NCBI GenBank assembly: GCA_965224195.1
Contig: OZ245040.1
Location: forward strand, 1,696,001 to 1,760,000
DNA from: Nitrosopumilus sp.
Lineage (GTDB): Archaea > Thermoproteota > Nitrososphaeria > Nitrososphaerales > Nitrosopumilaceae
Reading direction: 5' to 3'
DNA length: 64,000 bases
In this document: one piece after another, positions 2,491-49,681 of the stretch
Position numbering within the stretch: the first letter of the stretch is position 1
How the letters are laid out: the number at the start of each line of letters is the position of its first letter
The notes under the pieces: model-generated
What the model was told of the DNA's origin: nothing
What the model saw: only the letters and a program-made list of their open reading frames with translations
The model's database searches: none
Translations under genes and position numbers: made by a program

Positions 2491-2970
2491 TTATTTTAAA
2501 TTTTCAACAATTTGTTTGTTTTCTTTTAATTCAGACACTACATCCATTACCATTTTTAGATCTAAATTATATTCATTAGCCATATCACTTGGATAAAATA
2601 TTTGACCTACGCTAATTTCTTTTAATATTATCTTTTTCACACTTTCTTTATCTAAATCAAAATTGTCCCCGCTAGTATTTTCTTGCATTTGAATTAAGCC
2701 ATAACTTTCTATCATTTGCTGTGTTTTGTCATTATTTTTTAATACCCTTTCTATCAAATCACGTAATTCAATTCTTAGACACCTAAAGTTATCCAAGTCA
2801 GTGTGTGCAGTGTTTTGAAATTCTTTTTTTATGTATTCCAATGTATGCATATGCTGTTCGTGTACCATTTCAGTTTTATCTGTAGATAATCGTGTCATGT
2901 TTTGTCTGCCATATGTTTCTTCTGGTGTTCCTGGCGTAACTGCAGGGGTCGTAAAAGATAATCGTGTCAT
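2491..2970 (-). CDS. Hypothetical protein with C-terminal winged-HTH-like segment; N-terminus extended 24 aa by a 72-bp insertion/duplication
   Basis: FYPSDMANEYNLDLKMVMDVVSELKENKQI; duplicated MTRLS start. Confidence 0.6.
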   Translation of the reverse strand: MTRLSFTTPAVTPGTPEETYGRQNMTRLSTDKTEMVHEQHMHTLEYIKKEFQNTAHTDLDNFRCLRIELRDLIERVLKNNDKTQQMIESYGLIQMQENTSGDNFDLDKESVKKIILKEISVGQIFYPSDMANEYNLDLKMVMDVVSELKENKQIVENLK

Positions 2971-2991
2971 GTTTTGTCTGCCATATGTTTC
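2884..2991. repeat. 36-bp perfect direct repeat (2884-2919, 2956-2991) around a 36-bp unique insert
   Basis: AGATAATCGTGTCATGTTTTGTCTGCCATATGTTTC twice; insert TTCTGGTGTTCCTGGCGTAACTGCAGGGGTCGTAAA. Confidence 0.95.
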
Positions 2992-3386
2992 AGCATATGC
3001 CTTGGAAATTTTGTTGAAATATCATAATTCTGCCACACATTCAATTGATACTCTGTTGTGATATAACGCAATTGTTTTAGACTTTCATATAGTTGATTAG
3101 GATCTTTTGCATTATATGCCTCTACCAAGAATCGAATTTTCTCTGAGATATCTAAATTTATTTTGTCTCTAATTTCTTTTGGAATTGCATGATCAGATAT
3201 GTCCACTAAATTGTCAAATACAGTTTCTAAAATTTCACTAATGAATACCTCATCTTCTAACTCTAGATTCCATGTAAATTTTACTAAATCACTAGAAATT
3301 CTATGACATACAGAATAATTGGCACTTTCAAGATTTTTTTGTATATCCCCAACCTTGTTTGTAAATACTATTTTTGCATCTTTCAT
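2967..3386 (-). CDS. Hypothetical alpha-helical protein, coupled to the downstream gene
   Basis: 139-aa ORF with ATGA stop/start overlap at 2967-2970. Confidence 0.65.
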   Translation of the reverse strand: MKDAKIVFTNKVGDIQKNLESANYSVCHRISSDLVKFTWNLELEDEVFISEILETVFDNLVDISDHAIPKEIRDKINLDISEKIRFLVEAYNAKDPNQLYESLKQLRYITTEYQLNVWQNYDISTKFPRHMLKHMADKT

Positions 3387-3824
3387 TTATTTGATGTCGT
3401 TTATCTCATTTATAATATAAACATGATGATTGAATAAATTAAAAAGTCACATGAATATGCTGTAAAATAAAATCCTTGCGAAACCAACATCATACTAACG
3501 GATTCGGCCTCAATGTATGGGATTGAAATTTCAAGATAAGATACAACTGTAATTACAATTAAGGATAATATTATTGCAGTGCTGTCTTTTTTCTGTATGA
3601 TTTATGATTAATTATTGTACCATATTTTCTAGATCCTCCGTATCGATTATCGTATTTGCCTCCAAACGCACGACCTTTCCAATCCTCTACCTCAAGTCGT
3701 CTAGGTCATCCACATCACAGTTAATACATATTATCCACAACAATATTACTCCCATAACAGATCTCTAGATGAGTTGCGTAATTACAAACAAAAATCTAAC
3801 TTTTCTGTCATTTAATTTTTAATT

Positions 3825-4736
3825 TTATGGAATTGCAATGAATTCTTCTTTCCATTTAATCTTGAAACTGACAGTCCCACAAACAATTTCACTTATCACA
3901 TCATATCTGCATAATTTGTTTCTAAACACATCGCGATTTATCCGAAATTGCCTGATTTGTGCAATGACATGTCCAACTTTTATTCTAATTTTTGACTGCA
4001 TCTTGTTCCACTCCTTTTGAGCAACAGTCAATTTTTTTCCTTTCTTTTTCTTGCATGGCAAAACACTTGCCTGTTCTGGAAAGTCTTTTTCCATCCCCAA
4101 ATATCCAGGATCATAAGACTGCAGCAACCCTTCAGATAATGTTGGATGCTTTGATTTGTAAATTCTGTAATCATGATGACTGCCAGGCGAATGTGCAGAT
4201 TTGTGGATTGTTATCCCATCAGGATTTATGGCGATTTGATTTTGTACTGCATGTTTTTTCTTTTTGCCTGAATGGTGTGTCCTTCTTTTCTTTTTGTTTT
4301 TTGGTCTTGGGATGGGCTGTTCTGTGCCATCAGTGATTGCAACTAATTCCGGAAAGAATTCTTGCAATTCCTGCATGCCGTTAATCTTTTTTGAGTCTGC
4401 ATATTTTTTGGCAGCAATTACAATGGACTGCCTCACTGCAGGCTCCAAACATCTGATGTTTCTCATTACGTTTGGTTTGTCCAAATCAAATGTCATCCCT
4501 GGCATGTCATATGTTGTGTACATTCTGTAGTACATGAAAAACATTAGAATTCTGCCTTTGAAGGACAAGTCAAACTTGTGTCCTGCACCAATGTCTCTTT
4601 CTCTATTTTTGGACAGTCCCTTTTGTTCTGCAGTTTTGCAATTGTTCTTTATTTCCTTGTATAGGGAATCAAATTGTGGAACAGTTAGTCCTGCTATTGG
4701 CAGGAATTGCTTTGGTTTTTTTGCCAGTTTGTGCAA
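3825..4736 (-). mobile_element. IS5-family transposase (HTH_Tnp_4 + DDE_Tnp_4), probably inactive
   Basis: ITDGTEQPIPRPK, SGKKKKH, DPGYLG; RIKVGHVI has G at the expected catalytic E. Confidence 0.85.
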
Positions 4737-4805
4737 TTAAACATGAATTGAAAATAATTCAGCCTTAGCTTTGGATCTTATGATTAGAAAATGTTGAGAT
4801 TATGC

Positions 4806-5015
4806 TCAAATTGGACTAATTGCACAACTCATCTCATCTAAATCAGGTTTTATTCTAGAATAAGGAATAACTCTTTGATCAATATCTAAAATCACTTCTT
4901 GAGATAATGTCGTATGATTTAATATTGCAATATTAGATGTTGCTTTCCATTCACTAAATCCAATTCTTTTCAATACATTTAACACTGTATTAACTACATA
5001 TTCTTCTCGATTCAA
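4806..5015 (-). CDS. HicA-like toxin, possibly degenerate
   Basis: VLNVLKRIGF fold pattern directly downstream of HicB; canonical His not evident. Confidence 0.45.
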   Translation of the reverse strand: MNREEYVVNTVLNVLKRIGFSEWKATSNIAILNHTTLSQEVILDIDQRVIPYSRIKPDLDEMSCAISPI

Positions 5016-5019
5016 AAAG

Positions 5020-5223: not shown

Positions 5224-5271
5224 GATAGTATAATATATTATATAATTTAGACATATATGTATTTGAAAATA

Positions 5272-5474: not shown

Positions 5475-5482
5475 AAACACTG

Positions 5483-7907: not shown

Positions 7908-7908
7908 T

Positions 7909-17509: not shown

Positions 17510-20500
17510 CTATTTTTTCTTTATTATTTCAAAATAATAAACAATAGCAGCAAACACAGCGACAAAAAATATTATTGAAATTATTAGCAGATCACCAATA
17601 GATACTTTGAGCTCAACAGGCTCTGGCGTTGGTTCAGGTGTGTATACAGGTTCAGGCGTTGGTTCAGGTGTGTATACAGGTTCAGGCGTTGGTTCAGGTG
17701 TGTATACAGATTCAGGTGTTGGTTCAGGTGTGTATACAGGTTCAGGCGTTGGTTCAGGTGTGTATACAGGTTCAGGCGTTGGTTCAGGTGTGTATACAGA
17801 TTCAGGTGTTGGTTCAGGTGTGTATACAGGTTCAGGTGTTGGTTCAGGTGTTGGTTCAGGTGTTGGTTCAGGTGTTGGTTCAGGTGTTGGTTCAGGTGTG
17901 TATACAGGTTCAGGTGTTGGTTCAGGTGTTGGTTCAGGTGTGTATACAGGTTCTGGTGTTGGCTCTGGTATTGGTTCCGGTGTTGGCTCTGGTGCTCTGA
18001 CAGATGATGGCCTGTTGTCCCTGCCGACAATGTCTTTTAACAGTTCATCCAAATTCATATTATCATAATGTACTATGCCAGGCAGTTCCTTCAGTATGAT
18101 GTGGCCATCACAGTATGCCGCAGCAGATTCTACCTGTGCCTGTTTTTGTGATTTGTCGTAACTTTTTATCGACATTACATTTTCAGAAAGCATCTCTAAA
18201 CCCTCAAAGCTAAACGCATATAGAGAGATGGGTACGTGCACGGACTTGAGAAGATCCTTCATGCTGGCCTGGGATGTCACATCAATGCCAACATTGGATG
18301 GATGCCCGTCCAAGACAATGGAGGCGCCAAGGTTGTCCCCATATGTACCTGCAACTAGTACCACATCATTTTCCAGTCCGCACTGGTTGTACAGCAGCAG
18401 CATTGGACTCATTGTAAAACCTACAGAGCCGCTGCTGCCACCACGGTCAGCAGGCTGTGGTGTAGTAGGCTGTGGTGCGATGGGTTTTGGTGCGATAGGT
18501 TTTGGTGCGATAGGTTTTGGTGGCAAGACATCCTCTGGTATTTCTTTAGGAGTGCTGTCAATTACTGCGGTATCTAGTTCAACACTGACTGTATCTTCAA
18601 TGACAATAGGATCCCTTACGACAAGTACTAGGCTGTCATCCTTCTTCACCACATCTGCACCATCTGATGTTGGAATGTCATCAGCTAGTGACTTGGTGTG
18701 CTGCACTGCCGTGCCATCAGGTGTCAAGCTGGTATTCTTTGTTACATCCACGCCGTCTGATGTTGGAATATTGTCAGCCAGTGATTTGACATATTGTTTG
18801 GTTACAGAGATACCATCTGATGTTGGGATAGTATCAGATGGAGATATTGCATACAGTTTCACTACATCAACTGCGTCCTTTGATGGAACTGCATCAGCTG
18901 GAGATATGGCATACAGTTTCACTACATCCGCATTGTCCCTTGTTGGGATAGTATCAGATATGGATCTAGAGTACCGCTTTACCACATCCGCATCATCTGA
19001 TGTTTTGATAATATCAGCTAGAGATTTTACATATTGCTTGGTTACATCCACATCATCAGATGTTGGAATTGTATCAGATATGGATCTAGAGTACCGCTTT
19101 ACCACATCTGCATCATCTGATGTTGGAGCCTCATCAGATGGAGATATGGCATATAGTTTCACTACATCTGCACCATCTGATGTTGGAATATTGTCAGCTA
19201 GTGATTTGACATATTGCTTGGTTACAGAGATACCATCAGATGTTGGAGCTTCATCAGATGGAGATATGGCATATAGTTTCACTACATCTGCACCATCTGA
19301 TGTTGGAATATTGTCAGCTAGTGATTTGACATATTGTTTGGTTACAGAGATACCATCAGATGTTGGAATATTGTCAGCTAGTGATTTGACATATTGTTTG
19401 GTTACAGAGATATCATCGGATGTTGGGATGGTGTCAGATGGAGATATGGCATATAGTTTCACTACATCAACTGCGTCCTTTGATGGAACTGCATCAGATG
19501 GAGATATGGCATATAGTTTCACTACATCCGCATTGTCCCTTGTTGGGATAGTATCAGATATGGATCTAGAGTACCGCTTTACCACATCTGCACCATCTGA
19601 TGTTTTGATGTCATCAGATATGGATTTGACATATTGCTTGGTTACATCCACATCATCAGATGTTGAAATTGTATCAGATATAGATCTAGAGTACCGCTTT
19701 ACCACATCTGCATCATCTGATGTTGGAGCTTCATCAGATGTAGATATGGCATATAGTTTCACTACATCTGCATCATCTGATGTTGGGATGGTGTCAGCTG
19801 CTAAGCTGGCATACAGTTTCGCCACAACCACACCATCAGATGTTAGGATAGTGTCAGATGTAGATATTGCATATAGTTTCGCCACATCCGCATTGTCCCT
19901 TGTTGGGATAGTATCAGATATGGATTTGACATATTGTTTGGTTACAGAGATACCATCAGATGTTGGAGCTTCATCAGATGGAGATATGGCATATAGTTTC
20001 ACTACATCTGCACCATCTGATGTTGGAATATTGTCAGCCAGTGATTTGACATATTGTTTGGTTACAGAGATACCATCAGATGTTGGAGCTTCATCAGATG
20101 GAGATATGGCATACAGTTTCGCCACATCTGCATTGTCCCTTGTTGGGATAGTATCAGATGGAGATATTGCATACAGTTTCGCCACATCTGCATTGTCCCT
20201 TGTTGGGATAGTATCAGATGGAGATATTGCATGCAGTTTCGCCACATCTGCATTGTCCCTTGTTAGAACATCATCAAATGTAGATCTAGAGTACCGCTTT
20301 ACCACATCTGCATCATCTGATGTTGGGATGTTATCAGATGGAGATATTGCATACAGTTTCACTACATCTGCATTGTCCCTTGTTAGAACATCATCAAATG
20401 TAGATCTAAAGTACCACTTTACCACATCTGCATCATCTGATGTTGGGATAGTATCAGATGGAGATATTGCATACAGTTTCACTACATCCGCACCATCTGA

Positions 20501-22477
20501 TGTTGGGATAATATCAGCTAGAGACTTTGCATGCAGTTTCACTACGTCTGCACCATCTGATGTTTTGATAATATCAGCTAGAGACTTTGCATATTGTTTC
20601 ACTACGTCTGCACCATCTGATGTTGGGATGGTCTCATCAGCCAGGATAAATTGTCTCTTCACCACGATCATTATGCTAAAAAGACCATTGAACTGGCCGT
20701 CACCAGAACCTCTGCTGCCAAACTGAAACTTGTAGTTGTATGCAGAGTCAAAGACCTGGATGCGGTGGTTGCCGTTGTCTGCAACAAGTATGTCGCCGTC
20801 TGACTTTATTGCCATGCCCGTAGGACCATTGAACTGGCCGTCACCAGAACCTCTGCTGCCAAACTGGTCCTTGTATGTACCGTTGGGATCAAAGACCTGG
20901 ATGCGATCGTTTAAGGCATCTACGACAAGTATGTCGCCATTTGGTGCGATTGATATGTTACTTGGACCATTGAACTGGCCGTTGCCAGAACCTTTGCTGC
21001 CAAACTGTGATTTGTAGTTGTATGCAGAGTCAAATACCTGGATGCGGTGGTTCTTTCTGTCTGCAACAAGTATGTCGCCATTTGGTGCGATTGATATGTT
21101 AATAAGGCGATGGAGTTGGCCTGCAGAGCCGGAACTGCCAAACTGGGACTTGTAGTTGTATGCAGAGTCAAATACCTGGATGCGGTAGTTGTCGTTGTCT
21201 GCAACAAGTATGTCGCCATTTGGCGCTATTGCCATGCCACGAGGGTTGTCAAACTGGCCGTTGTCAGAACCGAAACTGCCAAACTGGAACTTGTATGTAC
21301 CATTAGAATGAAAGACCTGGATGCGGTGGTTGTCGTGATCTGCAACAAGTATGTCGCCATTTGGTGCGATTGCCATGCCCGTAGGACGGTTGAACTTGCC
21401 ATCGCCAGAACCCTTGCTGCCAAACTGGTCCTTGTATGTACCGCTGGGATCAAATATCTGGATGCGGTGGTTGTTGATGTCTGTAACAAATATGTCGCCA
21501 TCATATGTGATTGGCTTGAGATAGCCAGACTTGAAGACATGGATGCGGTGGTTGTCGTTGTCTGCAACAAGTATGTCGCCATTTGGCGCTATTGCCATTC
21601 CCATAGGGCGAAAATATTTGTCGTCAACAGTATTGGTAAACTGGGACTTGTAGTTGTATGCAGAGTCAAACACCTGGATGCGGTGGTTGTTTTTGTCTGC
21701 AACAAGTATGTCGCCATCAGGGTTGACTATTATGTTGTTGGGGTTACGGAGTTGGCCGTCACCAGAGCCGGAACTGCCAAACTGGGACTTGTAGTTGTAT
21801 GCAGAGTCAAAGACCTGGATGCGGTGGTTGTCGTGATCTGCAACAAGTATGTCGCCGTCAGACTTTATTGCCATGCCCGTAGGGCCATTGAACTGGCCGT
21901 TGCCAGAACCCTTGCTGCCAAACTGGGACTTGTAGTTGTATGCAGAGTCAAAGACCTGGATGCGGTGGTTGTCGTGATCTGCAACAAGTATGTCGCCACT
22001 TGGTGCAACTGCCATGCCACGAGGGTTGTCAAACTGGCCGTTGCCAGAACCTCTGCTGCCAAACTGGGACTTGTAGTTGTATGCAGAGTCAAAGACCTGG
22101 ATGCGGTGGTTGCCGCTGTCTGCAACAAGTATGTCGCCGTCAGACTTTATTGCCATGCCCGTAGGGCCATTGAACTGGCCGTTGCCAGAACCCTTGCTGC
22201 CAAACTGGGACTTGTAGTTGTATGCAGAGTCAAAGACCTGGATGCGGTGGTTGTTTCTGTCTACAACAAGTATGTCGCCACTTGGCGCTATTGCCATGTC
22301 ACGAGGGCTAGCCAACATGCCGGCAGCAGAACCGGAGCTGTCAAAAAATGACTTGTATGTATGCGGTTCAGGGGCAGTAGAGGACTGGGCCTGGGCAGCA
22401 GGGATAACAGCAGCAGTAGTAATGATGATTGAAAATAAGACTGCCATGCCAAAAAATACAAGTAGTTGCAATTTCAC
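17510..22477 (-). CDS. Large membrane-anchored surface protein: signal peptide, two NHL beta-propellers, ~31 x 20-aa repeats, PEPT stalk, C-terminal TM
   Basis: NHL units [23 protein letters not shown]; 60-bp DNA periodicity at ~18760-20640; PEPVYT repeats; TM followed by KKK. Confidence 0.9.
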
Positions 22478-22774: not shown

Positions 22775-22886
22775 CATGGCACCTCGATTGCATCACTGCC
22801 ATCCATTGCAGCCTGATCAAAATCCTTCAGCCGCATCATCATTTGCTGCATGGCACCTTGATTGCATCACTGCCATCCATTGCAGC
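22775..22886. repeat. 38-bp direct repeat (one mismatch; 22775-22812, 22849-22886) around a 36-bp unique insert
   Basis: CATGGCACCTYGATTGCATCACTGCCATCCATTGCAGC twice; insert CTGATCAAAATCCTTCAGCCGCATCATCATTTGCTG. Confidence 0.95.
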
Positions 22887-26836: not shown

Positions 26837-29800
26837 TTTAAGACGCCCACCATGTAAGACAAGACTATCTTTAGCTGCTCTACTGAAATCTGATTTTTAT
26901 ATACCATCTCTCCAAGGTGTTTCTTTATCCATTTTGGCAATGATACGTCAGGTGGCAGGTCATTTGTAATGCCAAGTGACTTTATCAGCTCAGCATCAGT
27001 TGCAGAGAATTCAGAGTATCCTGCCCATCTCTTTATCATCTCATTTTGTTTTTTGATGGCATCAGTGCTCTGGGTGTCAGATGATGGTGGTAGCAGTTTA
27101 ATCATGTCATCATCTTGGGCGATGGCTGTCTTTGATGCATCAAGGCATGTTCCATCATGATTCATCACCTGCTCAGACAGACATGCAAAGGTTCCAGGTT
27201 CAGGGTCCATACATAAGCCAGTATCCAGCAACAACTTGCCTGCATCACATGATGATGTGATAGTGTCAGAAGAAGAAGAAGAAGAGGAACTGCCGCCTGA
27301 TGATGAAGAGGAACTGCCGCCTGATGATGAAGCAGTGTCAGAAGAAGATGAAGAACCTTGCGCATCATTCTGTGCTGTTACAGTCAGGGCATTATGAATG
27401 GTAAATGTCAGGGCATTTCGCCTGTCATCCCATGCATATATTTGAATGTCAGAGGTATCCATTGCTTTGCCAAAGGTTACAGAATAGTCCCATGTTGCAA
27501 CGCGTACATCAACTTTGGCAATACTGACAGACGCATTCTCAATTAGTCCGTTTGGATCAATTATTTTCAGGGAGTTGCTGTTATTATCATTGTTGCCATC
27601 ATTGTATTTTTTGTCCCAGACTAGTTTTGTGTCACTGTCACATATTTGGTTGTTTGATATTTGCTTGTTCAAACACAGCTCAACATGAGAGATGCTCTCC
27701 CATGACATGTTATCGTGCATTGTCAATGATATCGGGATTGATTGGCCTGTCTGTACTAGTACGGGGTTGTCTAGTGTATAATCTAATCGGGATGGCTCTG
27801 GAGATATTCCCACTGTTCCGATGAATATGGTGTGGGTTTTCCCATCAAAGGAGGTGGTGGGGAATGAAGGCGGAGTGGACTCGGTACTGCTGCTACTGCT
27901 ACCTCCTCCAGAACTACGGCCAGTTCCTGTAATGATAATGTGATTGTCCGGTGATGCATCTATTTGATTGCCTGAAACATCAGATACAGCTCCTTTCAGG
28001 ATGTCCAGTTGTGGGGTAGTCAGTGCAATGACTGATTCCCTTTGGGATGCAGTCAGCTCAATCTCTATGAAATTACTGTTGCCGACAGTTTCAATGCTGG
28101 CACCAGTCAGTGAAATCTCATTGGTATTTCCTGACTCACTGATGAATAATTTGGATAGATCAAGAGAGGAAGCCAATGCGTACTCGTGGATATCTCCACC
28201 AGTAGCACCTACAACAAACATCTTTGTTCCAGCTGGGTTAAATGCCACACCTGTTGGATTTGCATCCTGTAAAGATACTGAGAAAGTGTCTGCATGGGTG
28301 GGGGCAGATATGTCAAAGGGGGCAGACAGGGCGTACTCGTGGATGGCATCACCAGCATCACCTACAACAAACATCTTTGTTCCATCTGTGTTAAATGCTA
28401 CATCTGCCGGAGTTGTATCCTGGTCAGATACTGGGAAAGAGACATCTGCAAAGACGGAGGAGGATACGTCAAAGGGGACAGATAATGTATACTCGTAGAC
28501 ACGATCATTTTGAGCACCTATAACAAACATCTTTGTTCCATTTGTGCTAAATGCCATGCCTGTTGGACTAGCGTCCCGATCAGATACTGGGAAAGAGTCA
28601 TTTGCAAAGACGGAGGAGGATACGTCAAAGGGAGTAGTTAATGTGTACTCGTGGATCTCTCCACCAGTATTACCTACAACAAACATCTTTGTTCCATTTG
28701 TGTTAAATGCTACATCTGCCGGAGTTGCATCCTGTGCAGATACTAGGAAAGGATCATCATCTACAAAGGAGAGAGTAGATACGTCAAAGGGGTCAGACAG
28801 TGTGTACTCGTTGATATCCTTACCAGCAGCACCTATAACAAACATCTTTGTTCCATTTGTGCTAAATGCCATGCCTGTTGGACTAGTTTCCTGCGTACCT
28901 ACTGAGAAAGATCTGTCTGTATGGGCGGCAGTAGACAAGTCAAAGTCCCCGTTTGCTATTATCTCATCAAAAGTTACTGCCAAGACTCCGGTTCCCTCAT
29001 TTAGTGCGGCTGAATCAAATGTTGGCGGGGTATTGTCAGCAGATGGTGATACTGGCACAACAGGTACTACAGGCACTGGTGGTGCGACAGGCATATTAAG
29101 GATGACATGTGCAAAAGACTCTAAACTATCATAGTTTGCTACAGTAACAACTGCATATACAACTATGCGGTATGACTCACCTGATGTCAGGCCTGTTATC
29201 GTATGTAAGGTGTTAATCATATCACTGTCGTGTTCAGGTATACGATCACCGGTAGCAGGATTATAGACCTCCACGGTATATAATATATCATCAATAGTAT
29301 AGAATGGATTGGCAGGTATTGCAGGTGCAGTCCAAGTGATTTCAGCGGCTGTGCCGTTTATTATATTGACTGAAAGGTTAGTTGGCTTATTAAGTGACGG
29401 AGGTATCGGCATATCAAAGGATACAGCTGCGGTAGGTTGGGAGGACAGAACGGTTGAATCTGACGACAGGGCTTTTACCTCTACGGTTACCTCATAAGAT
29501 TCGCCAGGTGTCAGGCCTGTTGCCGTATGTGTGGTAGTGGTGCCGTCAGATATGGTATACGGTACGGTGGTGCCATCAGCAACATCAGTGACATTCACGA
29601 GATAGGATACGTCACTAATGTCATAGAATGAATTGGCAGGTATTGCAGGTGCAGTCCAAGTGATGGTAGCTGTGGTGCCAGATACATCCACTGAAAGGTT
29701 AGTTGGAGCAGCAAGTGGTGGTGGTACTGCTGCTACACTGTTAGTTACTGCAATTGCATTGTTTAGTGCTGCAAGAATTTGATTGCCTGAAACATCAGAT

Positions 29801-32800
29801 ACTGCCGCTGCCAAGATGTCCAGTTCTGGAGTAGTCAATGCAAGGGCTGACTGTAATTGAGGTGCAGTCAGCTTGATCTCTATGGAGGTACTGTTGCCGA
29901 CAGTTTCAATGCTGGCACCGCTCAGTGCCGTGCCGGTACCATTAACACTTCCCGACTCACTGATGAGCAGTTTGGACAGGTCAACTGGAGTGGCTAATGT
30001 ATACTCGTAGACATTAACACCTACAGCAAACATCTTTGTTCCATCTGGGCTAAATGCTACACCTAACGGAGTAGTGTCCTGTGAACCTACTAAGAAAGTG
30101 CCTGTATGGGTGGGGTCAGATATGTTAAAGGGGGCAGTTAATGTGTACTCGTAGATTTTGTTAGTACTATAACCTACAACAAACATCTTTGTTCCAGATG
30201 GGTCAAATGCTACACCTGTTGGATTCAAGTCCTCTGAACCTACTGAGAAAAGGTCTGTATAGGTGGGATCAGATATGTTAAAGGGAGAAGATAATGTGTA
30301 CTCGTAGACATGATCATATTGATCACCTACAACAAACATCTTTGTTCCAGCAGAGTTAAATGCCATGCCTTCTGGATGATCGTCCTGTGAAGTTACGTTA
30401 AAAGTGCCTATATGGGTGGGATCAGATATGTTAAAGGGGGCAGTTAATGCGTACTTGTTGATATCCCCGTCAGAATAACCTACAACAAACATCAGTGTTC
30501 CATTTGTGCTAAATGTTACATCTGACGGAAATGTGTCATGTGAAGTTACGTTAAAAGTGCCTATATGGGTGGGATCAGATATGTTAAAGGGGGCAGTTAA
30601 CTTGTACTCGTAGATACTATCATTGTTATCACCTGCAACAAACATCAGTGTTCCATTTGTGCTAAATGCTACACCTTGTAGAGATGTGTCTGAAGATACT
30701 GAGAAAGAATTGTCTGTATAGGCGGCAGTGGATACGTCAAAGCCCTCGTTTGATATTGTCTCATCAAAAGTTATTGCCAGGACTCCTGTCTTCTCATCTA
30801 GTGCGGCTGACTCAAATTTTGGCGGGGTATTGTCAGGTGTAACTGCAGTAGGACTGCCCGGTGATGGCGGCTGTACAGCATTGGTGGTAGTCACAGAATT
30901 GTCTGTTGCTGTGTCAATGGCATTTCCTGATATGTCCCGTACGGCGCCTACCCCAATGTCAAGCTGCGGTGTAAGAGAGTTTGCAAGTACTGTGCTTATC
31001 TGTGGCAAAGTCAGCTGAATCAGGATTTCAGTGCTGTTGCCTGCTGTTTGAACTGCCGCACCGTCAAGTGACACCTGGTTTACAGTGTTAGGTGCGCTGA
31101 GGAACAGCTTTGTCAGGTCAATGTCCGTAGTTGGCGTGTTGTCTATTCTCTCATCAAATACAATTGTCAGCATGCCAGTACCTGCATCAAATGCGGCTGA
31201 CTCAAAGGCGGGCTTTACAGTATCAGCAGTGACATTCACGGTATTGTCATCTGATGCGTCAATGGCATTTCCAAACAGGTCAGTTACTGCAGAGTCTGCA
31301 ATGTCAAGCTGCGGTTCAGTAGAGTTGCCAATTACGTTGGTCCTCTGCCTCTCAGTTAGGGTAATTGCAATCTCAGCGCTGTGGCCAGTTGTGTCAATGC
31401 TTGCACCGGCAAGCGGTGTCTGGTTTACTGTGTTAGGTGCGCTAAGGAACAGCTTTGCCAGATTAATGTCTCCAGATAGACTGTTGTATATTGGTTCATC
31501 AAATTCGATTGTCAGTTTGCCAGTACCTGCATTAAATGATACAAAATACAAATTAGGCCCTAGGTCATCTGCAATGACAATGTTACTGTTCATGCCCAGC
31601 GAGCCAAAGGTCTTCGGAGGATTTACGCTCAGTACAATTCCTTTTGGAGGCAGCGTCTGGTCGGCATTGGCGTGCGGGAATGCGGCATCGCGGATGATGT
31701 TGTCATTTAGTAGCAAGGCATTCGTACCACTATATTCAAGTTTAGACGTCTGCTCACCAGGCTGAATTGAATAAGTAAAATGCAGCGTGTCAGTGTTGTT
31801 GCCTGAGGCATACCCAGCTACTGCGCCAGAACCAAATAAAACGCTGTCTACATTCAGATGGATATACGGTGTGCCAGTAACAATTACAGGCGCAGAAAAG
31901 TGCACAGAGATGTCAATTTCTCCCAAGGTGCCATATGTGCCGTCAGCATTGTCAGAGGAGACGGCATTTACGACTATCTCCTTTTGCATATACATTACAT
32001 ATATGGCCCCCTTGTCTGCTCCATCAGTGTCATCAAGGTCCGCACCTGCCACAATATCTGGTATGCCATCATCATCCAAGTCGCCAATCAGTGCAACTGA
32101 GGAGCCGAACTGGTCGCCATCAAATACTTCTGCATCATCAGGGCCGCCGCCGCCGGGGGAGGCAGAGCTGTCAATCACTTTAGTCGCCTTTACTGAGCCG
32201 TCAATGTTGTTCATGAGCAGGACGTATACGGCGCCAGTATCAGCTTTTCCTCCGGCAGCTCCCTGTACGCCCACTGCGATATCTGGGGCACCATCACCAT
32301 TGATGTCGCCAATGCCTGCAACTGAGGAGCCAAACTGGTCATAGTCAAGTATTGTGGGGACGTTTGCAACAGTATCGTCAATCCTTTTGGTGCTACTTAC
32401 TGTACCATCAGAGTTCATGAACAAGATAAATACGGCGCCACCGTCATCGGCTGTATCACTATCCCTTTCTGCGCCCACTGCAATGTCTGCGGTGCCGTCG
32501 TTATTCAGGTCTCCAATGTTTGCCACTGATGAGCCAAAATAGGAATAATCTGAGATGGTGGGGCCGGAGTTAGTAGAACCGTTGATCTCAACTGATCTCT
32601 TTATCGAGCCGTCAGCATTCATGAGCATGACAAATATGGCGCCATCGTTAAAGTAATTTGTGTCAGCCAGTGGCGCGCCTGCCACGATATCTGGGATGCC
32701 ATCACCGTCAAGGTCGCCAATGCCTGCAACTGAGTAGCCAAAGTTGTCATCATCTGAGAGGACGGGGCCGTTTGCAGTGGAATTTTTGATTGGACTGTAG

Positions 32801-35800
32801 CTTTTTGCGGTACCGTCAGGGTTCATGAACAGGACGTATACGGCGCCAGTATTAGTCGTACGGCCATTGTTATCATCCTGATATGCGCCCACTGCAATGT
32901 CTGTGGTGCCATCACCATCAAGGTCTCCAATGGATGCCACTGAATAGCCAAAGCCGTCATGGTCAGAGAGGTAGTAATTATTGCTGCCAAATTCGGGGTT
33001 ACTGATCTGGGCTGTTCTCTTTATAGTGCCATCACGATTCATAAATAAAATGTGGATGGCGCCCTTGTCAGTTCCTCCATGATCATCCTTGTATGCGCCT
33101 GCTACAATATCTGGGATGCCATCACCATCAAGGTCACCTATTCCTGCAACTGATGCGCCAAACAGGTCGCCATCAGAGAGGATGGGGCCGTCAGCAGTAG
33201 TGTCATCAATCCTTTGGGTGCTTTTTACTGTGCCGTCAGCGTTCATGAACATGGTGTAGATGGCGCCCTTGTAGATATCATTTGGATTTTGAGAATTGAT
33301 ACCCACTGCAATATCTGCGATGCCGTCGTCGTTGATGTCGCCAATGCCTGCAACTGAGGAACCAAACTGCTCTTGGTCGAAGAGGACGGGGCCGTTTGCA
33401 GTGGAATCGTCAATCTTTGCGGTGCTCTTTACGGTACCGTTAGTGTTCATGAGCATGACAAATACGGCGCCCCTCCTATCACCTCCGGTGGGATCCCCTG
33501 GTGCACCCACTACAATATCTAGGACACCATCACCATCCAAGTCTCCAATGTTTGCCACTGATGTGCCAAAATAGGAATAATCGGCGGGGACGGGGCCGGA
33601 GTTAGTAGAACTGTCAATCTTTATGGTGCTCTTTACCGTGCCGTCAGTATTCATAAATAAGACGTATACGGTACCCTTGTTGTCATTGCCTGGTGCACCC
33701 ACTGCAATGTCTGTGGTGCCGTCATTATTCAGGTCACCAATGCCTGCAACTGATGCGCCGAATTTATCATAATCGGCGAGGGCAGGGCCGTCTGTAGTAG
33801 AATCGTCAATCTTTATGGTGCTCTTTACTGTACCATCAGAGTTCATAAGTAAAATGTGTATGGCGCCCCTGCCATCACCTCCGGTGCCATCTACTGGTGC
33901 GCCTGCTGCAATGTCTGAGACGCCATCATCATCCAAGTCTCCGATTAGTGCGACTGAAGAGCCGAATTCATCATCGATGGAGAGGACGGGGCCGTTTGGA
34001 GTAGAATCGTCAATCTTTACAGTCTCTTTTACTGAACCGTTAGTGTTCATAAGTAAAATGTGTATGGCGCCCTTGTCTCGTCCTCCGGTGTCATCGTAAT
34101 TTGCGCCTGCTACAATATCTGGGATGCCGTCGTTATTCAGGTCACCAATTGATGCTACTGATATGCCGAATCTATCATCAGTGGAGAGGGTGGGGCCGTT
34201 TAAAGTAGAACTGTTGATCTCAACTGATCTCTTTATGGTGCCGCCAGTATTCATAAATAAAATATGTATAACACCGGTGCCGGCTCCTCCATGATTATCC
34301 TGGTATGCGCCCACTGCAATATCCTCAACGCCATCACCATCAAGGTCGCCAATGCCTGCAACTGAGTAGCCAAAGCGGTCGCCATCAGAGAGGATGGGGC
34401 CATCAGCAGTAGTGTCATCAATCTTTACAGTCTCCCTTGCGCTGCCTGTCCCATGCGGGGCAATGGCATCAAGATAGATGATGTGTACGGCCCCTGTGTT
34501 AGATCCCCCATCATTTGTGCCCTCATAAGGTGCGCCTACTGCAATATCTGGCATGCCATCACCATTAAGGTCGCCAATGTTTGCCACTGATGTGCCGAAA
34601 TTCGAATCACTGCCAAAGACAAGGCTGTCTGTGGTAGAATCGTCAATCTTTGCAGTACCATTTACTGTACCATCAGAGTTCAAAAGTATAATGTAGATGG
34701 CGCCGCTGTCATTGCCTGATGCGCCAACTGCAATATCTGTGGTGCCGTCAGAGTTGATGTCTCCAATGGATGCCACTGATGCGCCAAAAAAGAAATAATC
34801 TGCAAGTGAGGGGGGGCCGTTTGTGGTGGAATCGTCAATCTTTGCGGTGCTCTTTACGGTGCCGTCAGTATTCATGAATAAGACGTATACGGTACCCTTG
34901 TTGTCATTGCCTGGTGCACCCACTGCAATGTCTGCGATGCCGTCGTTATTCAAGTCTCCAATGTTTGCCACTGATAAGCCAAAATAATTAACTAGATGGG
35001 AGGCGACAGTTGTACCAAAGTCGTCAATCTTTTGGGTGCTCTTTACTGTACCATCAGGGTTCATAAATAAAATGTGGATGGCGCCCTTGCCAGATCCTCC
35101 GCCGGAATCATTATTTGATGCGCCCACTGCAATATCTGTGGTGCCGTCATTATTCAGGTCACCAATGCCTGCAACTGATGCGCCAAACATGTCATGGTTA
35201 GCAAGTACAAGACTGGCTGTAGTAGAGTCGTCAATCTTTACGGTGCTCTTTACTGAACCATCAGTGTCCATGAGCATGACGTATACGGCGCCCCTGTAGG
35301 ATCCTTGAGTGCTGGTAATGCTTGCACCTGCTACAATATCTGGGATGCCATCACGATTCAGGTCTCCTATTCCTGCAACTGATGCGCCAAAATCATCACT
35401 ACCGACGATATCAGTAGGACCGTTGGCAGTGGAACCGTTGATCTCAGCTGTTCTCTTTATGGAGCCATCAGGGTTCATGAACAGGACGTGTACGGCGCCA
35501 GTGCTGGCTGCCACAGTGAGGCCTCCAGTCAAACCCACTGCAATGTCTGCAGTACCGTCGCCGTCCAAGTCTCCTATTCCTGCAACTGATGTGCCAAAAT
35601 AGGAATCATCTAAGAGTGGGGGAAGATTTGCAGTAGAGTTGTTGATTTTTACAGGAGGGGCAGTGGAGCTCGGATATGCATAGTTGTTTGCATATGCCAC
35701 ACTGTCACCAAACTCTAGCTTTAGGTGGTGCTTTCCGGGGGTGTGGACCAGCATCTCAAAGGAGCTGGTGGTGCTGTCACCTGAGTAATCTGGAAATACG

Positions 35801-36756
35801 ACAGACGTTATTTTGGATTCATCATCATAGACAAACTCGGGTGCAATCATCATGTTGCTGTTACTACTGATATCTGAACTATACAGTGAGACAAACTCCA
35901 GGTCATCAGGCAGCCCCGTCCCAAAGCTGGTCCCGTTGACTGCAGATATCACCAGGTCGTGTGTTCCCTCTGTTACAAAGTCTACAGTCCAGTGTCCTCC
36001 CACAGCAGGATATGACTGCTCATTTAGCACCCTGATGCTGCTGCTGCCGTGCTGCTGCATCTCCGAAAGAAACTCTTGCACTGCTGTTTTCTCATGGCCG
36101 CTCAGAGGCCTGTTGTTGCCAGGGCTGTCATAGCTGGCATTATTATCATAGCTGGCATTATTATTATCATATCTGGCATTATAGCTGGTATCATACAGCG
36201 AGTCAGCCAAGGCATCCAAATCTGCTCCGTACAGCACAGAGTCCTGCAAATCCTGATACTGCTGATACTCACCTGTAATAGAATCAAGAACAGGCCAGGA
36301 GCTGCTGCTGTTGTTGTTGTTGTTATTGTTGTTGTTGGCACTGTTGTTACTGCCATCTAAATCACCCATGCCTTCAGGTGGATATGCAAACGCGTGCTGG
36401 ATTGGAGAGAAGGTCAGTCCGATTGGGCCAAGCATGCTACCAGACACAAACACGATGCAGACAAGCACGGCAAGGGATCTTTTCAGAAAAGGGCGGCTGT
36501 CGTATCTGCTTGGCAGCATGCTTGCAAGCACAAAGATTCCTGGCGCAACTACAAAGAGCACGTAAAAGTGTGCAGAAGGCGACTGCTGATTCCACAGCAA
36601 AATCCCCTGAGACTCTGATGAGGAAGAGCCTGCAGGATGCGGCGTGGCCTCATTGTACACAGTCTCCTGTGCAGATACGGGAGGCATGCCAGACAATGCA
36701 AGAACTGTAAAAAGCAAAAACAGCAAAAAGACACTCTTTGGAGCCATGGCTACCAA
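26833..36756 (-). CDS. Giant (~3300 aa) surface protein with FG-GAP/integrin-alpha repeats, beta-propeller repeats and FN3-like domains
   Basis: Many FGxSVAxIGDLDGDGxxDIAVGA units; PTGMAFSTNGTKMFV units; APTNLSV..ITWTAP; N-terminal signal and TM segments. Confidence 0.9.
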   Translation of the reverse strand: MVAMAPKSVFLLFLLFTVLALSGMPPVSAQETVYNEATPHPAGSSSSESQGILLWNQQSPSAHFYVLFVVAPGIFVLASMLPSRYDSRPFLKRSLAVLVCIVFVSGSMLGPIGLTFSPIQHAFAYPPEGMGDLDGSNNSANNNNNNNNNSSSSWPVLDSITGEYQQYQDLQDSVLYGADLDALADSLYDTSYNARYDNNNASYDNNASYDSPGNNRPLSGHEKTAVQEFLSEMQQHGSSSIRVLNEQSYPAVGGHWTVDFVTEGTHDLVISAVNGTSFGTGLPDDLEFVSLYSSDISSNSNMMIAPEFVYDDESKITSVVFPDYSGDSTTSSFEMLVHTPGKHHLKLEFGDSVAYANNYAYPSSTAPPVKINNSTANLPPLLDDSYFGTSVAGIGDLDGDGTADIAVGLTGGLTVAASTGAVHVLFMNPDGSIKRTAEINGSTANGPTDIVGSDDFGASVAGIGDLNRDGIPDIVAGASITSTQGSYRGAVYVMLMDTDGSVKSTVKIDDSTTASLVLANHDMFGASVAGIGDLNNDGTTDIAVGASNNDSGGGSGKGAIHILFMNPDGTVKSTQKIDDFGTTVASHLVNYFGLSVANIGDLNNDGIADIAVGAPGNDNKGTVYVLFMNTDGTVKSTAKIDDSTTNGPPSLADYFFFGASVASIGDINSDGTTDIAVGASGNDSGAIYIILLNSDGTVNGTAKIDDSTTDSLVFGSDSNFGTSVANIGDLNGDGMPDIAVGAPYEGTNDGGSNTGAVHIIYLDAIAPHGTGSARETVKIDDTTADGPILSDGDRFGYSVAGIGDLDGDGVEDIAVGAYQDNHGGAGTGVIHILFMNTGGTIKRSVEINSSTLNGPTLSTDDRFGISVASIGDLNNDGIPDIVAGANYDDTGGRDKGAIHILLMNTNGSVKETVKIDDSTPNGPVLSIDDEFGSSVALIGDLDDDGVSDIAAGAPVDGTGGDGRGAIHILLMNSDGTVKSTIKIDDSTTDGPALADYDKFGASVAGIGDLNNDGTTDIAVGAPGNDNKGTVYVLFMNTDGTVKSTIKIDSSTNSGPVPADYSYFGTSVANIGDLDGDGVLDIVVGAPGDPTGGDRRGAVFVMLMNTNGTVKSTAKIDDSTANGPVLFDQEQFGSSVAGIGDINDDGIADIAVGINSQNPNDIYKGAIYTMFMNADGTVKSTQRIDDTTADGPILSDGDLFGASVAGIGDLDGDGIPDIVAGAYKDDHGGTDKGAIHILFMNRDGTIKRTAQISNPEFGSNNYYLSDHDGFGYSVASIGDLDGDGTTDIAVGAYQDDNNGRTTNTGAVYVLFMNPDGTAKSYSPIKNSTANGPVLSDDDNFGYSVAGIGDLDGDGIPDIVAGAPLADTNYFNDGAIFVMLMNADGSIKRSVEINGSTNSGPTISDYSYFGSSVANIGDLNNDGTADIAVGAERDSDTADDGGAVFILFMNSDGTVSSTKRIDDTVANVPTILDYDQFGSSVAGIGDINGDGAPDIAVGVQGAAGGKADTGAVYVLLMNNIDGSVKATKVIDSSASPGGGGPDDAEVFDGDQFGSSVALIGDLDDDGIPDIVAGADLDDTDGADKGAIYVMYMQKEIVVNAVSSDNADGTYGTLGEIDISVHFSAPVIVTGTPYIHLNVDSVLFGSGAVAGYASGNNTDTLHFTYSIQPGEQTSKLEYSGTNALLLNDNIIRDAAFPHANADQTLPPKGIVLSVNPPKTFGSLGMNSNIVIADDLGPNLYFVSFNAGTGKLTIEFDEPIYNSLSGDINLAKLFLSAPNTVNQTPLAGASIDTTGHSAEIAITLTERQRTNVIGNSTEPQLDIADSAVTDLFGNAIDASDDNTVNVTADTVKPAFESAAFDAGTGMLTIVFDERIDNTPTTDIDLTKLFLSAPNTVNQVSLDGAAVQTAGNSTEILIQLTLPQISTVLANSLTPQLDIGVGAVRDISGNAIDTATDNSVTTTNAVQPPSPGSPTAVTPDNTPPKFESAALDEKTGVLAITFDETISNEGFDVSTAAYTDNSFSVSSDTSLQGVAFSTNGTLMFVAGDNNDSIYEYKLTAPFNISDPTHIGTFNVTSHDTFPSDVTFSTNGTLMFVVGYSDGDINKYALTAPFNISDPTHIGTFNVTSQDDHPEGMAFNSAGTKMFVVGDQYDHVYEYTLSSPFNISDPTYTDLFSVGSEDLNPTGVAFDPSGTKMFVVGYSTNKIYEYTLTAPFNISDPTHTGTFLVGSQDTTPLGVAFSPDGTKMFAVGVNVYEYTLATPVDLSKLLISESGSVNGTGTALSGASIETVGNSTSIEIKLTAPQLQSALALTTPELDILAAAVSDVSGNQILAALNNAIAVTNSVAAVPPPLAAPTNLSVDVSGTTATITWTAPAIPANSFYDISDVSYLVNVTDVADGTTVPYTISDGTTTTHTATGLTPGESYEVTVEVKALSSDSTVLSSQPTAAVSFDMPIPPSLNKPTNLSVNIINGTAAEITWTAPAIPANPFYTIDDILYTVEVYNPATGDRIPEHDSDMINTLHTITGLTSGESYRIVVYAVVTVANYDSLESFAHVILNMPVAPPVPVVPVVPVSPSADNTPPTFDSAALNEGTGVLAVTFDEIIANGDFDLSTAAHTDRSFSVGTQETSPTGMAFSTNGTKMFVIGAAGKDINEYTLSDPFDVSTLSFVDDDPFLVSAQDATPADVAFNTNGTKMFVVGNTGGEIHEYTLTTPFDVSSSVFANDSFPVSDRDASPTGMAFSTNGTKMFVIGAQNDRVYEYTLSVPFDVSSSVFADVSFPVSDQDTTPADVAFNTDGTKMFVVGDAGDAIHEYALSAPFDISAPTHADTFSVSLQDANPTGVAFNPAGTKMFVVGATGGDIHEYALASSLDLSKLFISESGNTNEISLTGASIETVGNSNFIEIELTASQRESVIALTTPQLDILKGAVSDVSGNQIDASPDNHIIITGTGRSSGGGSSSSSTESTPPSFPTTSFDGKTHTIFIGTVGISPEPSRLDYTLDNPVLVQTGQSIPISLTMHDNMSWESISHVELCLNKQISNNQICDSDTKLVWDKKYNDGNNDNNSNSLKIIDPNGLIENASVSIAKVDVRVATWDYSVTFGKAMDTSDIQIYAWDDRRNALTFTIHNALTVTAQNDAQGSSSSSDTASSSGGSSSSSSGGSSSSSSSSDTITSSCDAGKLLLDTGLCMDPEPGTFACLSEQVMNHDGTCLDASKTAIAQDDDMIKLLPPSSDTQSTDAIKKQNEMIKRWAGYSEFSATDAELIKSLGITNDLPPDVSLPKWIKKHLGEMVYKNQISVEQLKIVLSYMVGVLK

Positions 36757-47681: not shown

Positions 47682-48289
47682 TTGATTGTTATATCTCATC
47701 TGCGTGGAACATATGAAAGTCTTTCAAAATACTATCTACGTGAAGCAAGAGGATGTCTAGAATCCAAATCATATAGAATGGCAATAGTATCTGCTGCAAC
47801 TTCAATACATTTGGCATCTTACTTCATTTTGTTGGCCAGAGGTAAATATCGTCAAGAAGACAGAGTTGCAAAATTCTATAACATCATACAAGAAATCAAA
47901 CAAAAAGATAAGTGGAAGCAAATTGAAGATGACATAGAGTAGTTGATGAATGCAAGAAACGCAATTGCGCATCCAGAAGAATGGGTTGTTCCGGAAACCA
48001 AGACAGACAGCACTACAGGACAAACAACTTTCACAGCAAAAGTAGAAATTGATGATCTTCCTCATATCAAAAAACAGGTTTTACTTTGTCTATGACGAAT
48101 GAATTAGGAAGTCTGTCAAAATTGGCAAAAGACGCAGTAAAAAAATCTGAAAGTATTTTGCTGAATTTTGGGTTTGCAGTAGAAACTAGTTACGTGAATA
48201 AAATGAAAGAATACTTAGAAAAAGAAATTCAAAGAATGACAGGCCAATCGGTAGATTTGGAGAATCTTCCCGAACAAAACCAAGCATAA
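47682..48289 (+). pseudogene. HEPN-domain protein with in-frame TAG and frameshift
   Basis: EARGCLESKSYRMAIV...DIE*LMNARNAIAHP (Rx4H). Confidence 0.6.
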
Positions 48290-48304
48290 TTTATTTGAAT
48301 GACT

Positions 48305-48730
48305 CTAATTTATCAATCCAAGTTTGAGGAAAGCTGTATTTTTGGCGCCATGAATAATCAAATCAACATAATCTAGATGTGATTGAACAAAATCTGTTTT
48401 ATTTACAACTACATATGTAATCATATCGTCAGATAATTTGATTTGTTTGTAAGCTCCTGATTTTACACCTTCCTTGATATCTAAAACATCTAGATCTTCT
48501 TTTGCTACGTCAAATACAACACTACAACAAAAATCACCAAGACTGTAAATAACATCCGCAACACCACCATTTCTATTAACAGATTTTCTAGTGAATCCAA
48601 GTTTGTAATTTTCTAAACGAAATAGTTTTGGGTTTGTGAGTTTTGGAACAGACAAATGTCTTTCCTTGCACCAATCAATCAAATTATTGTGGTCCAAGTT
48701 AGAACCATATGCAAAATATTTCATAATCAT
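48305..48730 (-). CDS. Gamma-glutamylcyclotransferase-family protein
   Basis: YFAYGSNL, GGVADV, LDIKEG. Confidence 0.85.
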   Translation of the reverse strand: MIMKYFAYGSNLDHNNLIDWCKERHLSVPKLTNPKLFRLENYKLGFTRKSVNRNGGVADVIYSLGDFCCSVVFDVAKEDLDVLDIKEGVKSGAYKQIKLSDDMITYVVVNKTDFVQSHLDYVDLIIHGAKNTAFLKLGLIN

Positions 48731-48833
48731 ATTATGTTCGAGTTTATCAAATCTTTTTCGCCTTGCTCATTGTCCTTCTTCTCATCACCATATCTTCAAA
48801 TACTTTAACAGCCTAATCCATTACGAAGATTCT

Positions 48834-49382
48834 ATGACAGAGTATTATTTGGATATTGAAACTTATTCCCCTGGCATGAGGCCAGATCCAGCTAATGATA
48901 AGATCATTACAATACAATATCAACAGGTTTCTACCGAGACAGGCGAACCCATAGGAGATTTGAAAATTCTAACCGAGTGGGAATTAGGTTCTGAAAAGGA
49001 ATTATTATCTAAATTTAAGGATGTCTTCTTGACTGAAAGTGATTTTAACTTCATCTCGATTGGAGTAAATCTTTATGAGTTTGATTTCGTAGCGTTAGCA
49101 AGTAAGTTCAACAAATATTTTGACCTTAGTTTGGGGTTACAGTTTTTCAGAGACAGGATAGCAATTGACCTAAAACCCATTTTAATAATGATGAACAATG
49201 GAAGATTGAAAGGCTATACTGATATTCTGGGCAAAAAACATTCAGGAAATGTGATCAAAGAATGGTACGAACAGAAAAAGCATGATAAGATAATTGATTA
49301 TATCAAAGATGAGGCTGAACACTTTATTGAAAAATACCAGATTTTAAAGAAAAAACTCCCTAAAATCGAATTTTCAGAATAA
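48834..49382 (+). CDS. DEDD/RNase H-like 3'-5' exonuclease
   Basis: YYLDIET, IITIQYQ, FDF, IDL, YIKDE; ATG at 48834. Confidence 0.8.
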   Translation: MTEYYLDIETYSPGMRPDPANDKIITIQYQQVSTETGEPIGDLKILTEWELGSEKELLSKFKDVFLTESDFNFISIGVNLYEFDFVALASKFNKYFDLSLGLQFFRDRIAIDLKPILIMMNNGRLKGYTDILGKKHSGNVIKEWYEQKKHDKIIDYIKDEAEHFIEKYQILKKKLPKIEFSE

Positions 49383-49572
49383 CACTAGAAAAAATTCAAT
49401 TAATTCCCAAATTATGTAAAATTTGTAATTTGTACAATATTACCCAGTTCAAATCTCAACAGATTTGAATTCTTGATTTTATCAAATTTTGAAAAGTATA
49501 GTACGAGAAGTTATTATGTATTATTATTTTGGGTTCTGTCAACTTGTTAGCACATAAGTCAAAATCTTTATA

Positions 49573-49681
49573 CTGTTCAATCTCAGGAGCTTTTCAACAG
49601 GGTGTTAATCTTCTTAGCCCGATGAAAGTACCCCTCATTTGTAAGCTGTTCAATCTCAGGAGCTTTTCAACAGGGTGTTAA
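49573..49681. repeat. 36-bp perfect direct repeat (49573-49608, 49646-49681) around a 37-bp unique insert inside the left TIR
   Basis: CTGTTCAATCTCAGGAGCTTTTCAACAGGGTGTTAA twice; insert TCTTCTTAGCCCGATGAAAGTACCCCTCATTTGTAAG. Confidence 0.95.

Follow-up and report, generated by a model that had tools for sequence, protein, structure and literature searches.

Off-target spacer integration by Cas1-Cas2 as the probable origin of solitary repeat-insert-repeat scars in a Nitrosopumilus genome

Introduction

The window analysed here is a stretch of 64,000 nucleotides from the genome of a Nitrosopumilus sp. (GenBank assembly GCA_965224195.1, contig OZ245040.1, hereafter C1; the window corresponds to C1:1696001-1760000). 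At three unrelated places in it, a short piece of host DNA occurs twice in direct orientation, the copies being separated by a single insert of similar length. The initial annotation, which was made from the sequence of the window, offered two explanations for these units: ectopic spacer integration by Cas1-Cas2, the adaptation enzymes of CRISPR systems, or the work of an undescribed integrase. The genomes studied here offer a natural record of off-target integration in which events can be counted. The genome to which the window belongs (G000; 2.07 Mb in two contigs, 33.6% GC) encodes archaeal AmoA, and the organism is therefore an ammonia-oxidising archaeon.

Results

Three repeat-insert-repeat units in the window

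The coordinates and lengths of the three units (Table 1) are exactly as first annotated, with identical 36-mers at sites 1 and 3 and 38-mers differing by one mismatch at site 2. No further unit of this build is present in the 64 kb besides these three; the other direct repeats of the window are tandem protein-coding repeats or low-complexity sequence. At site 1, the duplicated target holds the TCAT (ATGA on the minus strand) in which the stop and start codons of the minus-strand open reading frames (ORFs) 2967-3386 and 2491-2970 overlap. The insertion of 72 bp is in frame: ORF 2491-2970 gains 24 codons at its 5' end, and the upstream ORF retains its stop. At site 2, deleting 74 bp in silico restores a minus-strand frame of ~87 codons. 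Site 3 strikes an insertion sequence (IS) of the IS6 family, the duplication comprising the outermost 36 bp of its left end, whose counterpart lies as the reverse complement at ~51936-51971 on the right end.

Table 1. Features of the three units in the window (window positions) and CRISPR arrays of the same genome (positions prefixed C1)
Feature	Position	Strand	Remarks
Site 1, copy 1 of duplicated 36-bp target	2884..2919		same sequence as 2956-2991
Site 1, spacer-like 36-bp insert	2920..2955		no genomic match elsewhere
Site 1, copy 2 of 36-bp target	2956..2991		period 72
Site 2, copy 1 of 38-bp target	22775..22812		1 mismatch vs copy 2
Site 2, 36-bp insert	22813..22848		no genomic match elsewhere
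Site 2, copy 2 of 38-bp target	22849..22886		period 74
Site 3, copy 1 (outer) of 36-bp target, comprising the last 36 bp at the tip of the left inverted repeat of the IS	49573..49608		from alignment
Site 3, 37-bp insert	49609..49645		no genomic match elsewhere
Site 3, copy 2 of 36-bp target, running into the IS interior	49646..49681		identical to copy 1; period 73
IS6-family insertion sequence, left end struck at site 3	49646..51971	+	Pfam DDE_Tnp_IS240, E 6.6e-15; aligned inverted ends
Transposase ORF of the IS6-family element	50279-51577	+	Pfam DDE_Tnp_IS240
Array A	C1:707205-713740		90 repeats, 36 nt, 90/90 identical; spacers mostly 36-39 nt
Array B	C1:942056-946529		68 repeats, 30 nt, 68/68 identical; spacers mostly 36-37 nt
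Array C	C1:1457181-1466783		132 repeats, 37 nt, 132/132 identical; spacers mostly 34-38 nt

A genome-wide set of solitary units

The chromosome was scanned for exact direct repeats at distances of 10-400, which were then extended with mismatches allowed, and the scan recovered three true CRISPR arrays together with a set of solitary units. Outside the arrays, 50 isolated exact repeats of at least 24 nt were found, 29 of them at distances of 70-76, with lengths peaking at 35-39 nt; the triplet-shuffled chromosome contained no exact direct repeat of at least 24 nt at distances of 10-400. The three sites in the window are far beyond chance, and the period peak for which the initial annotation had proposed a genome-wide search exists, at 70-76. 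Mismatch-tolerant extension yielded 48 candidates at distances of 66-82, from which 12 were removed (one internally periodic, 11 in which the repeat did not measure 33-46 bp or the insert did not measure 30-41 bp), leaving 36 sites. This number is a lower bound, as the isolation filter skipped one unit of 36 + 36 + 36 bp (C1:146508-146615), which lies within a gene built of tandem repeats with a 48-bp period.

The 36 sites are narrowly distributed in size. Target duplications measure 34 bp (1 site), 35 (2), 36 (10), 37 (10), 38 (7), 39 (3) and 42-46 (3), periods 70 (2), 71 (4), 72 (7), 73 (11), 74 (6), 75 (3), 76 (2) and 80 (1), and inserts are 32-40 bp long with a mode of 34-37. The two copies of the target are identical at 24 sites, differ by one mismatch at nine and by two at three. 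The repeat sequence is different at every site, and the inserts have no sequence in common. The units have no leader, their repeats are unique host sequence and none has been extended, which sets them apart from functional arrays: they are scars, not working arrays. The initial annotation had taken the three sites to suggest a genome-wide mutagenic or DNA-recording process that seeds proto-arrays; the genome-wide extent is borne out by at least 36 sites, but the seeding is not, since every one of the 36 contains one insert and no second.

Most scars sit in strain-specific genes or IS copies, and seven of them fall within 45 kb at C1:882675-923187, at 20-60 kb from array B (p 0.003, simulation). 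For C1:910.5-913.5 kb, the part of this cluster that was searched, no orthologs were found in five relatives. Tolerance of insertions in accessory DNA would be the simplest account of the clustering, with an integration hot spot as the alternative.

Empty sites and effects on genes

That removing one repeat together with the insert restores the ancestral state, as had been claimed from the sequence, holds at each of the three window sites. For site 1, a 354-nt contig from run X15 aligns to both flanks and skips exactly 72 bp (2884-2955), with 36 letters that can be placed left or right of the joint. Natural samples thus differ in whether they carry the insertion. The population data for this site are assembled contigs (Logan), of which those from X13 and X14 break at the 36-bp repeat and those from X16 covered little of the stretch; none of the RNA runs contains this region. 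For site 2, all seven aligned paralogs (7/7) show a single copy and a 74-bp gap, and for site 3 the right end of the IS6-family element has the 36 bp once. Genome-wide, at least 9 of the 36 sites, once emptied in silico, can be aligned with paralogous copies over both junctions.

Orthologs in other genomes extend this picture to two further sites. At C1:886994, in a DsbA-like thioredoxin protein, none of the nine aligned orthologs (9/9) has the 24 residues added in G000. At C1:173581, a conserved short-chain dehydrogenase gene is truncated in G000 by a frameshifting insertion of 73 bp; the locus is kept in 4/5 relatives and empty in 4/4 orthologous loci, where the two alignment pieces overlap by 32-36 nt, corresponding to a single target copy. 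In-frame insertions add 24-25 codons, as in this DsbA-like protein; a cupredoxin/beta-propeller protein also has an in-frame insertion. No orthologs were found in the relatives searched for C1:1490408, 3949, 911485/912527, 1619794 and 1326527 or for window site 1, and at C1:739057 the relatives' homology stops at the site, the right flank aligning in G014 only. At this last locus it is precisely at the scar (L016 1556-1562) that most relatives cease to be homologous, and at window site 3 the first base of the duplication coincides with the IS terminus; scars might thus preferentially adjoin the ends of variable or mobile DNA, although these are two cases and could be chance.

Simple local duplication, which the initial annotation had named as an outcome that would overturn its proposal, is excluded by empty sites, in which the insert and the second copy of the repeat are both missing. 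The wider class of explanations to which it belongs, namely assembly artefact, local tandem duplication or replication slippage, is the least probable of all those we considered. Slippage would yield AB-AB and not a foreign sequence between two copies of A, whereas eight of the inserts are copied from loci up to megabases away. An artefact would hardly have produced the same structures in three other independently assembled genomes, nor the one or two mismatches by which the copies already differ at 12 of the 36 sites. What speaks for an artefact is that, among the matches listed, no X13 or X14 contig spans the filled site 1; set against this, the summed depth of X13 over L040 8672-9338 (377) equals that of the neighbours, an indirect argument that needs contigs beyond those listed.

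The same orthologs and paralogs bear on the idea that the units are what is left of true CRISPR arrays after decay, or mini-arrays brought in by mobile elements. One decayed I-G-like array remnant does exist in this genome, at C1:1626150-1626330. However, the 'repeat' at the 36 sites is plain host DNA, taken from the interior of genes, from the end of an IS or from a gene junction, it is single-copy in orthologs and paralogs, and no repeat is common to two sites, so that we give this explanation hardly any probability.

CRISPR-Cas loci of the same genome

All three CRISPR-Cas loci are of type I, each with cas1, cas2 and cas4, and three Cas1 and three Cas2 open frames, free of stops, adjoin the three arrays. 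The locus of array A is type I-G, with a Cas4g/Cas1g fusion (715 bits), Cas3g and Csb2; that of array B encodes Cas1b, Cas4 and Cas6, and that of array C Cas7/Csh2-like and Cas5b-like proteins, Cas3, Cas1 and a separate Cas4. The adaptation genes that the initial annotation had suggested locating are thus present outside the window, beside arrays with repeats of 36/37 nt and spacers of 34-39 nt, and the lengths of scar duplications and inserts equal those of the repeats and spacers of arrays A and C. Two of the excluded candidates (C1:912673 and C1:1228750) have 30-bp duplications and periods of 66 and 69, and therefore fit array B, with its 30-nt repeat, rather than A or C. The array remnant at C1:1626150-1626330 is an orphan of I-G type, consisting of two to three degenerate array A repeats at ~52-bp spacing with no cas genes nearby.

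Origin of the inserts

For eight of the 36 inserts, a match of 28-39 nt was found at a distant chromosomal locus, with identity that breaks off at the borders of the insert or a few bases from them; the flanks of these self sources do not resemble the duplicated target. The remaining 28 have a GC content of 41.8%, close to the 40-42% of array spacers (p 0.66) and above the 33.5% of host 36-mers (p 5e-6), which suggests, on base composition, that they were drawn from the same foreign pool as the array spacers. For the array spacers themselves, no protospacers were found in the G000 genome, and none for arrays A and C in the phage collection.

Set against the 8/36 self-derived inserts, 0/287 array spacers match the chromosome outside arrays, save for one 18-nt match at the E-value limit (6e-4). 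This contrast may reflect autoimmune purging: self-targeting spacers would be lost from arrays, while scars, not being read as CRISPR RNA, would keep the raw intake. Three of the five single-copy self sources (195966, 207998 and 234901) lie within 40 kb, and prespacers may be drawn preferentially from this region (C1:195937-234901); no clear origin or terminus to which insert sources could be related emerged from cumulative GC skew.

A weak boundary preference

For a search of target preference, both boundaries of 33 G000 sites were pooled (66 boundaries), and 15 sites from relatives (30 boundaries) formed an independent set. C at position -2 is enriched in both, with 27/66 boundaries in G000 (17% expected, p 3e-7) and 11/30 in the relatives (p 0.017). 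G/C at +1 occurs at 19/30 boundaries of the relatives (p 0.004) and gives a weaker signal in G000, as do T at +2 and an excess of A from +5 to +8. Both leaders carry C at -2, and the likeness of the scars to the leader-repeat junction is somewhat higher for array A than for array C (z 4.4 and 2.6, with orientation-selection bias in both).

Scars in related genomes

Cas1 was present in 24 of the 61 genus genomes searched, and 400-kb samples of six relatives were compared with G000, whose own density is ~7 units per 400 kb. In G009, which has only two Cas1 genes, an I-G fusion (37-nt-repeat array) and an I-B Cas1 (30-nt-repeat array), we found 8-9 units, with duplications of 36-39 bp and periods of 71-74. 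G014, with I-G plus other systems, has seven units, and G051, with I-G only, has 1-2. Of the two genomes with I-B only, G048 (30-nt repeat, ~110 repeats in the sample) has no unit, and G017 has one event, in four copies of a repeated element. G007, which has no Cas1, contains one older candidate with a mismatch. Across these samples the scars track the I-G module, though imperfectly.

The four loci of G017 (C1:1086776, 1221667, 1305769 and 1318834 of that genome; L085, L092, L096) contain one pair of 32-36-bp repeats around an insert with a poly-G run of variable length, which looks like a single repeat-insert-repeat event in a repeated element that was later multiplied.

Discussion

We interpret the scars as fixed footprints of off-target, that is non-array, spacer integration by the host's own Cas1-Cas2, to which we assign a probability of roughly 90%, the enzyme being assigned from geometry and co-occurrence. 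This reading is favoured because it accounts at once for the geometry of the units, its match to the co-resident arrays, the eight copied inserts, the empty sites, the genome-wide excess and the recurrence in relatives. It is the first of the two explanations offered in the initial annotation, and it agrees with the period peak, the cas genes and arrays of the same genome, the copied inserts and the empty sites. As we infer from the known mechanism of Cas1-Cas2, the complex, loaded with a prespacer of ~34-39 bp, would attack the chromosome outside any array at two staggered points separated by ~36-37 bp, the ruler normally set on the CRISPR repeat, and gap repair would then copy the stretch between the cuts, leaving a target copy, the insert and a second target copy.

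Which of the three modules is responsible is less certain. The I-G Cas4/Cas1-Cas2 module is probably the main agent, judging by geometry and co-occurrence, and is favoured because G009 has the same scars and only the I-G fusion and the Cas1 of a 30-nt-repeat I-B system. The same mechanism could, in G000, have been carried out mainly by the Cas1-Cas2 (with separate Cas4) of the I-B-like array C, or by both modules, and neither period nor length tells arrays A and C apart as agents in this genome. The array C module is complete (Cas1, Cas2, Cas4), its 37-nt repeat and 34-38-nt spacers give periods of 71-75, as at the scars, and 23 of the 36 sites have duplications of at least 37 bp. However, the other 13, with duplications of 36 bp or less, are too short for a strict 37-bp ruler, G009 reaches its 8-9 sites per 400 kb with an I-B Cas1 and the I-G fusion only, and the likeness to the leader-repeat junction is somewhat greater for array A, subject to the bias mentioned above. 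We therefore consider a main or joint role of array C unlikely.

An unrelated, undescribed integrase or mobile micro-element that produces ~36-bp inserts and ~36-bp duplications, with a CRISPR geometry that is coincidental, was the second explanation of the initial annotation. The self sources without a PAM (protospacer-adjacent motif) and the one candidate footprint in G007, a genome without any Cas1, could be taken in its favour. Yet the lengths of duplications and inserts coincide with those of co-resident arrays in four genomes, the GC content of the inserts is that of array spacers, and the inserts show no mutual likeness, hence no element. G048, with its 30-nt-repeat system only, has no site in 400 kb, and G000 has no casposase, its only Cas1-family genes being the three array-linked ones, none of them casposase-sized. 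Such an integrase is not needed to explain the data and appears highly improbable.

Several observations nevertheless weigh against off-target integration as we read it, or against the I-G module as its agent. In G000, the scar geometry is matched equally well by the array C Cas1-Cas2, with its 37-nt repeat, and by the I-G module; G051 carries an I-G locus with a large array and yet only 1-2 sites per 400 kb, while G017 and G007, both without I-G, each have one candidate. The comparison as a whole rests on kin genomes and on 400 kb of each. At the filled site 1, among the matches listed, no contig of X13 or X14 bridges the unit, the contigs ending at L040 8843 and restarting at 8962. The boundary motif is weak, and a purine at -3 was not replicated in the relatives' 30 boundaries.

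The remaining points concern the inserts, which the initial annotation had proposed comparing with the host genome, viromes and metagenomes in search of their sources and of a shared PAM. This comparison brought out the eight self copies, but no source of the three window inserts was found in the G000 genome or by exact matching in viral contigs. The inserts of sites 1 and 3 gave no exact match in metagenome contigs and that of site 2 none in genome contigs, by a procedure that would miss diverged sources. No consistent PAM or shared motif flanks the eight self sources, and TTN precedes none of them (0/8) in either orientation, as judged by eye. Possibly the PAM differs in these archaea, or off-target events use unprocessed prespacers.

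We would like to place the scars in the context of known cases of integration outside the leader end of an array. In Escherichia coli over-producing type I-E Cas1-Cas2, non-canonical integration creates 'neo-CRISPR' repeat-spacer-repeat units (Nivala, Shipman and Church, Nat Microbiol 2018; according to excerpts of 10.1101/148544, PMC6698737 and PMC7054753), and the evidence for such units in natural genomes, from two other species only, is termed 'circumstantial' in the excerpt of 10.1101/148544. As in those units, a spacer-sized fragment was inserted outside an array and a target of repeat length was duplicated. Unlike them, the scars described here did not arise under laboratory over-production: they are natural, fixed, archaeal and tied to type I systems with 36/37-nt repeats, a single 2-Mb genome has at least 36 of them, three relatives have such scars as well, and none has grown into an array.

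Integration at non-CRISPR sites has also been observed for Pyrococcus furiosus Cas1-Cas2 in vitro, where off-target sites have features in common with repeats, in the passages available of PMC6698737; a weak boundary motif is found here too. That work, as far as those passages go, used a plasmid substrate and another subtype and repeat length, whereas the footprints described here are inherited in a chromosome. The type I-U/I-G Cas4/Cas1-Cas2 of Geobacter sulfurreducens, a Cas4-Cas1 fusion acting with Cas2, selects a TTN PAM and adds to the array spacers with a predominant length of 36 bp (parts of PMC6547450, which make no mention of integration elsewhere than in the array). The I-G module of G000 resembles it in the fusion and in the 36-bp spacer length, and differs in that no TTN is seen at the self sources and that the scars lie outside the array. 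Finally, the 'ectopic spacer acquisition' of Streptococcus thermophilus and S. mutans denotes, in the portions consulted of PMC7999890, PMC5338259 and PMC8265633, integration at internal repeats of the array. It likewise takes place away from the leader-proximal repeat, but at genuine array repeats, while the targets here are unrelated host sequences.

Casposon integration, too, combines a Cas1-family integrase with a target-site duplication. Casposons are kilobase-sized and generate short duplications of about 14-15 bp, unlike the inserts of 32-40 bp found here, which are mutually unrelated. Insertion of a casposon or a DDE transposon was considered and rejected, given the size of the inserts, their lack of relationship and of ends, and a genome without a casposase. 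Casposases, as Cas1 homologues, are found in this genus (excerpts of PMC8464041 and PMC4046053). Among the relatives, G044, G067, G006, G014, G060 and G070 have open frames of the Cas1 family that, at 409-442 residues, exceed the array-linked Cas1 proteins in length and have no counterpart in G000; by their size they may be casposases.

The mechanism itself is already known. Novelty lies in the system, an archaeal type I with 36/37-nt repeats that is probably I-G, and also in the scale, in the repeated occurrence in different species and in the effects on genes. In the literature on off-target or ectopic integration, single-spacer repeats and Nitrosopumilus CRISPR, with most subscription journals outside the coverage, we found no report of natural off-target footprints at this scale or density. 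We lean towards the view that in this genus the I-G Cas4/Cas1-Cas2 module acts as a chronic, genome-wide insertional mutagen, leaving fixed scars in several species at a density of about one in 50-60 kb, breaking conserved genes and adding segments of 24-25 residues. The visible effects comprise the broken dehydrogenase gene, in-frame insertions in DsbA-like and cupredoxin/beta-propeller proteins, and hits in IS copies.

The scars amount to dozens of dated events, 24 of 36 with copies that are still identical and one polymorphic between samples. Presumably they are never used for interference; if so, they would form a selection-free record of what adaptation captures, about a fifth of it self DNA without a PAM, which arrays cannot show. 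Three questions are thereby opened to testing: what CRISPR adaptation costs in fitness, which targets an I-G integrase intrinsically prefers, and what the raw prespacer pool holds.

Two further features were noted. The trailer end of array A is adjoined by a minus-strand gene (C1:703942-707064; L004 943-4065) whose product of 1040 residues combines a UvrD/PcrA-like helicase with a Cas4-like nuclease domain at the C-terminus, and one scar, at C1:703813, lies just outside this gene. Within the window, the two giant minus-strand ORFs 17510-22477 (1655 codons) and 26833-36756 (3307 codons) consist of tandem units of 60, 141, 153 and 192 bp and have a GC content of 39-49%, above that of the rest of the window; they probably encode surface proteins.

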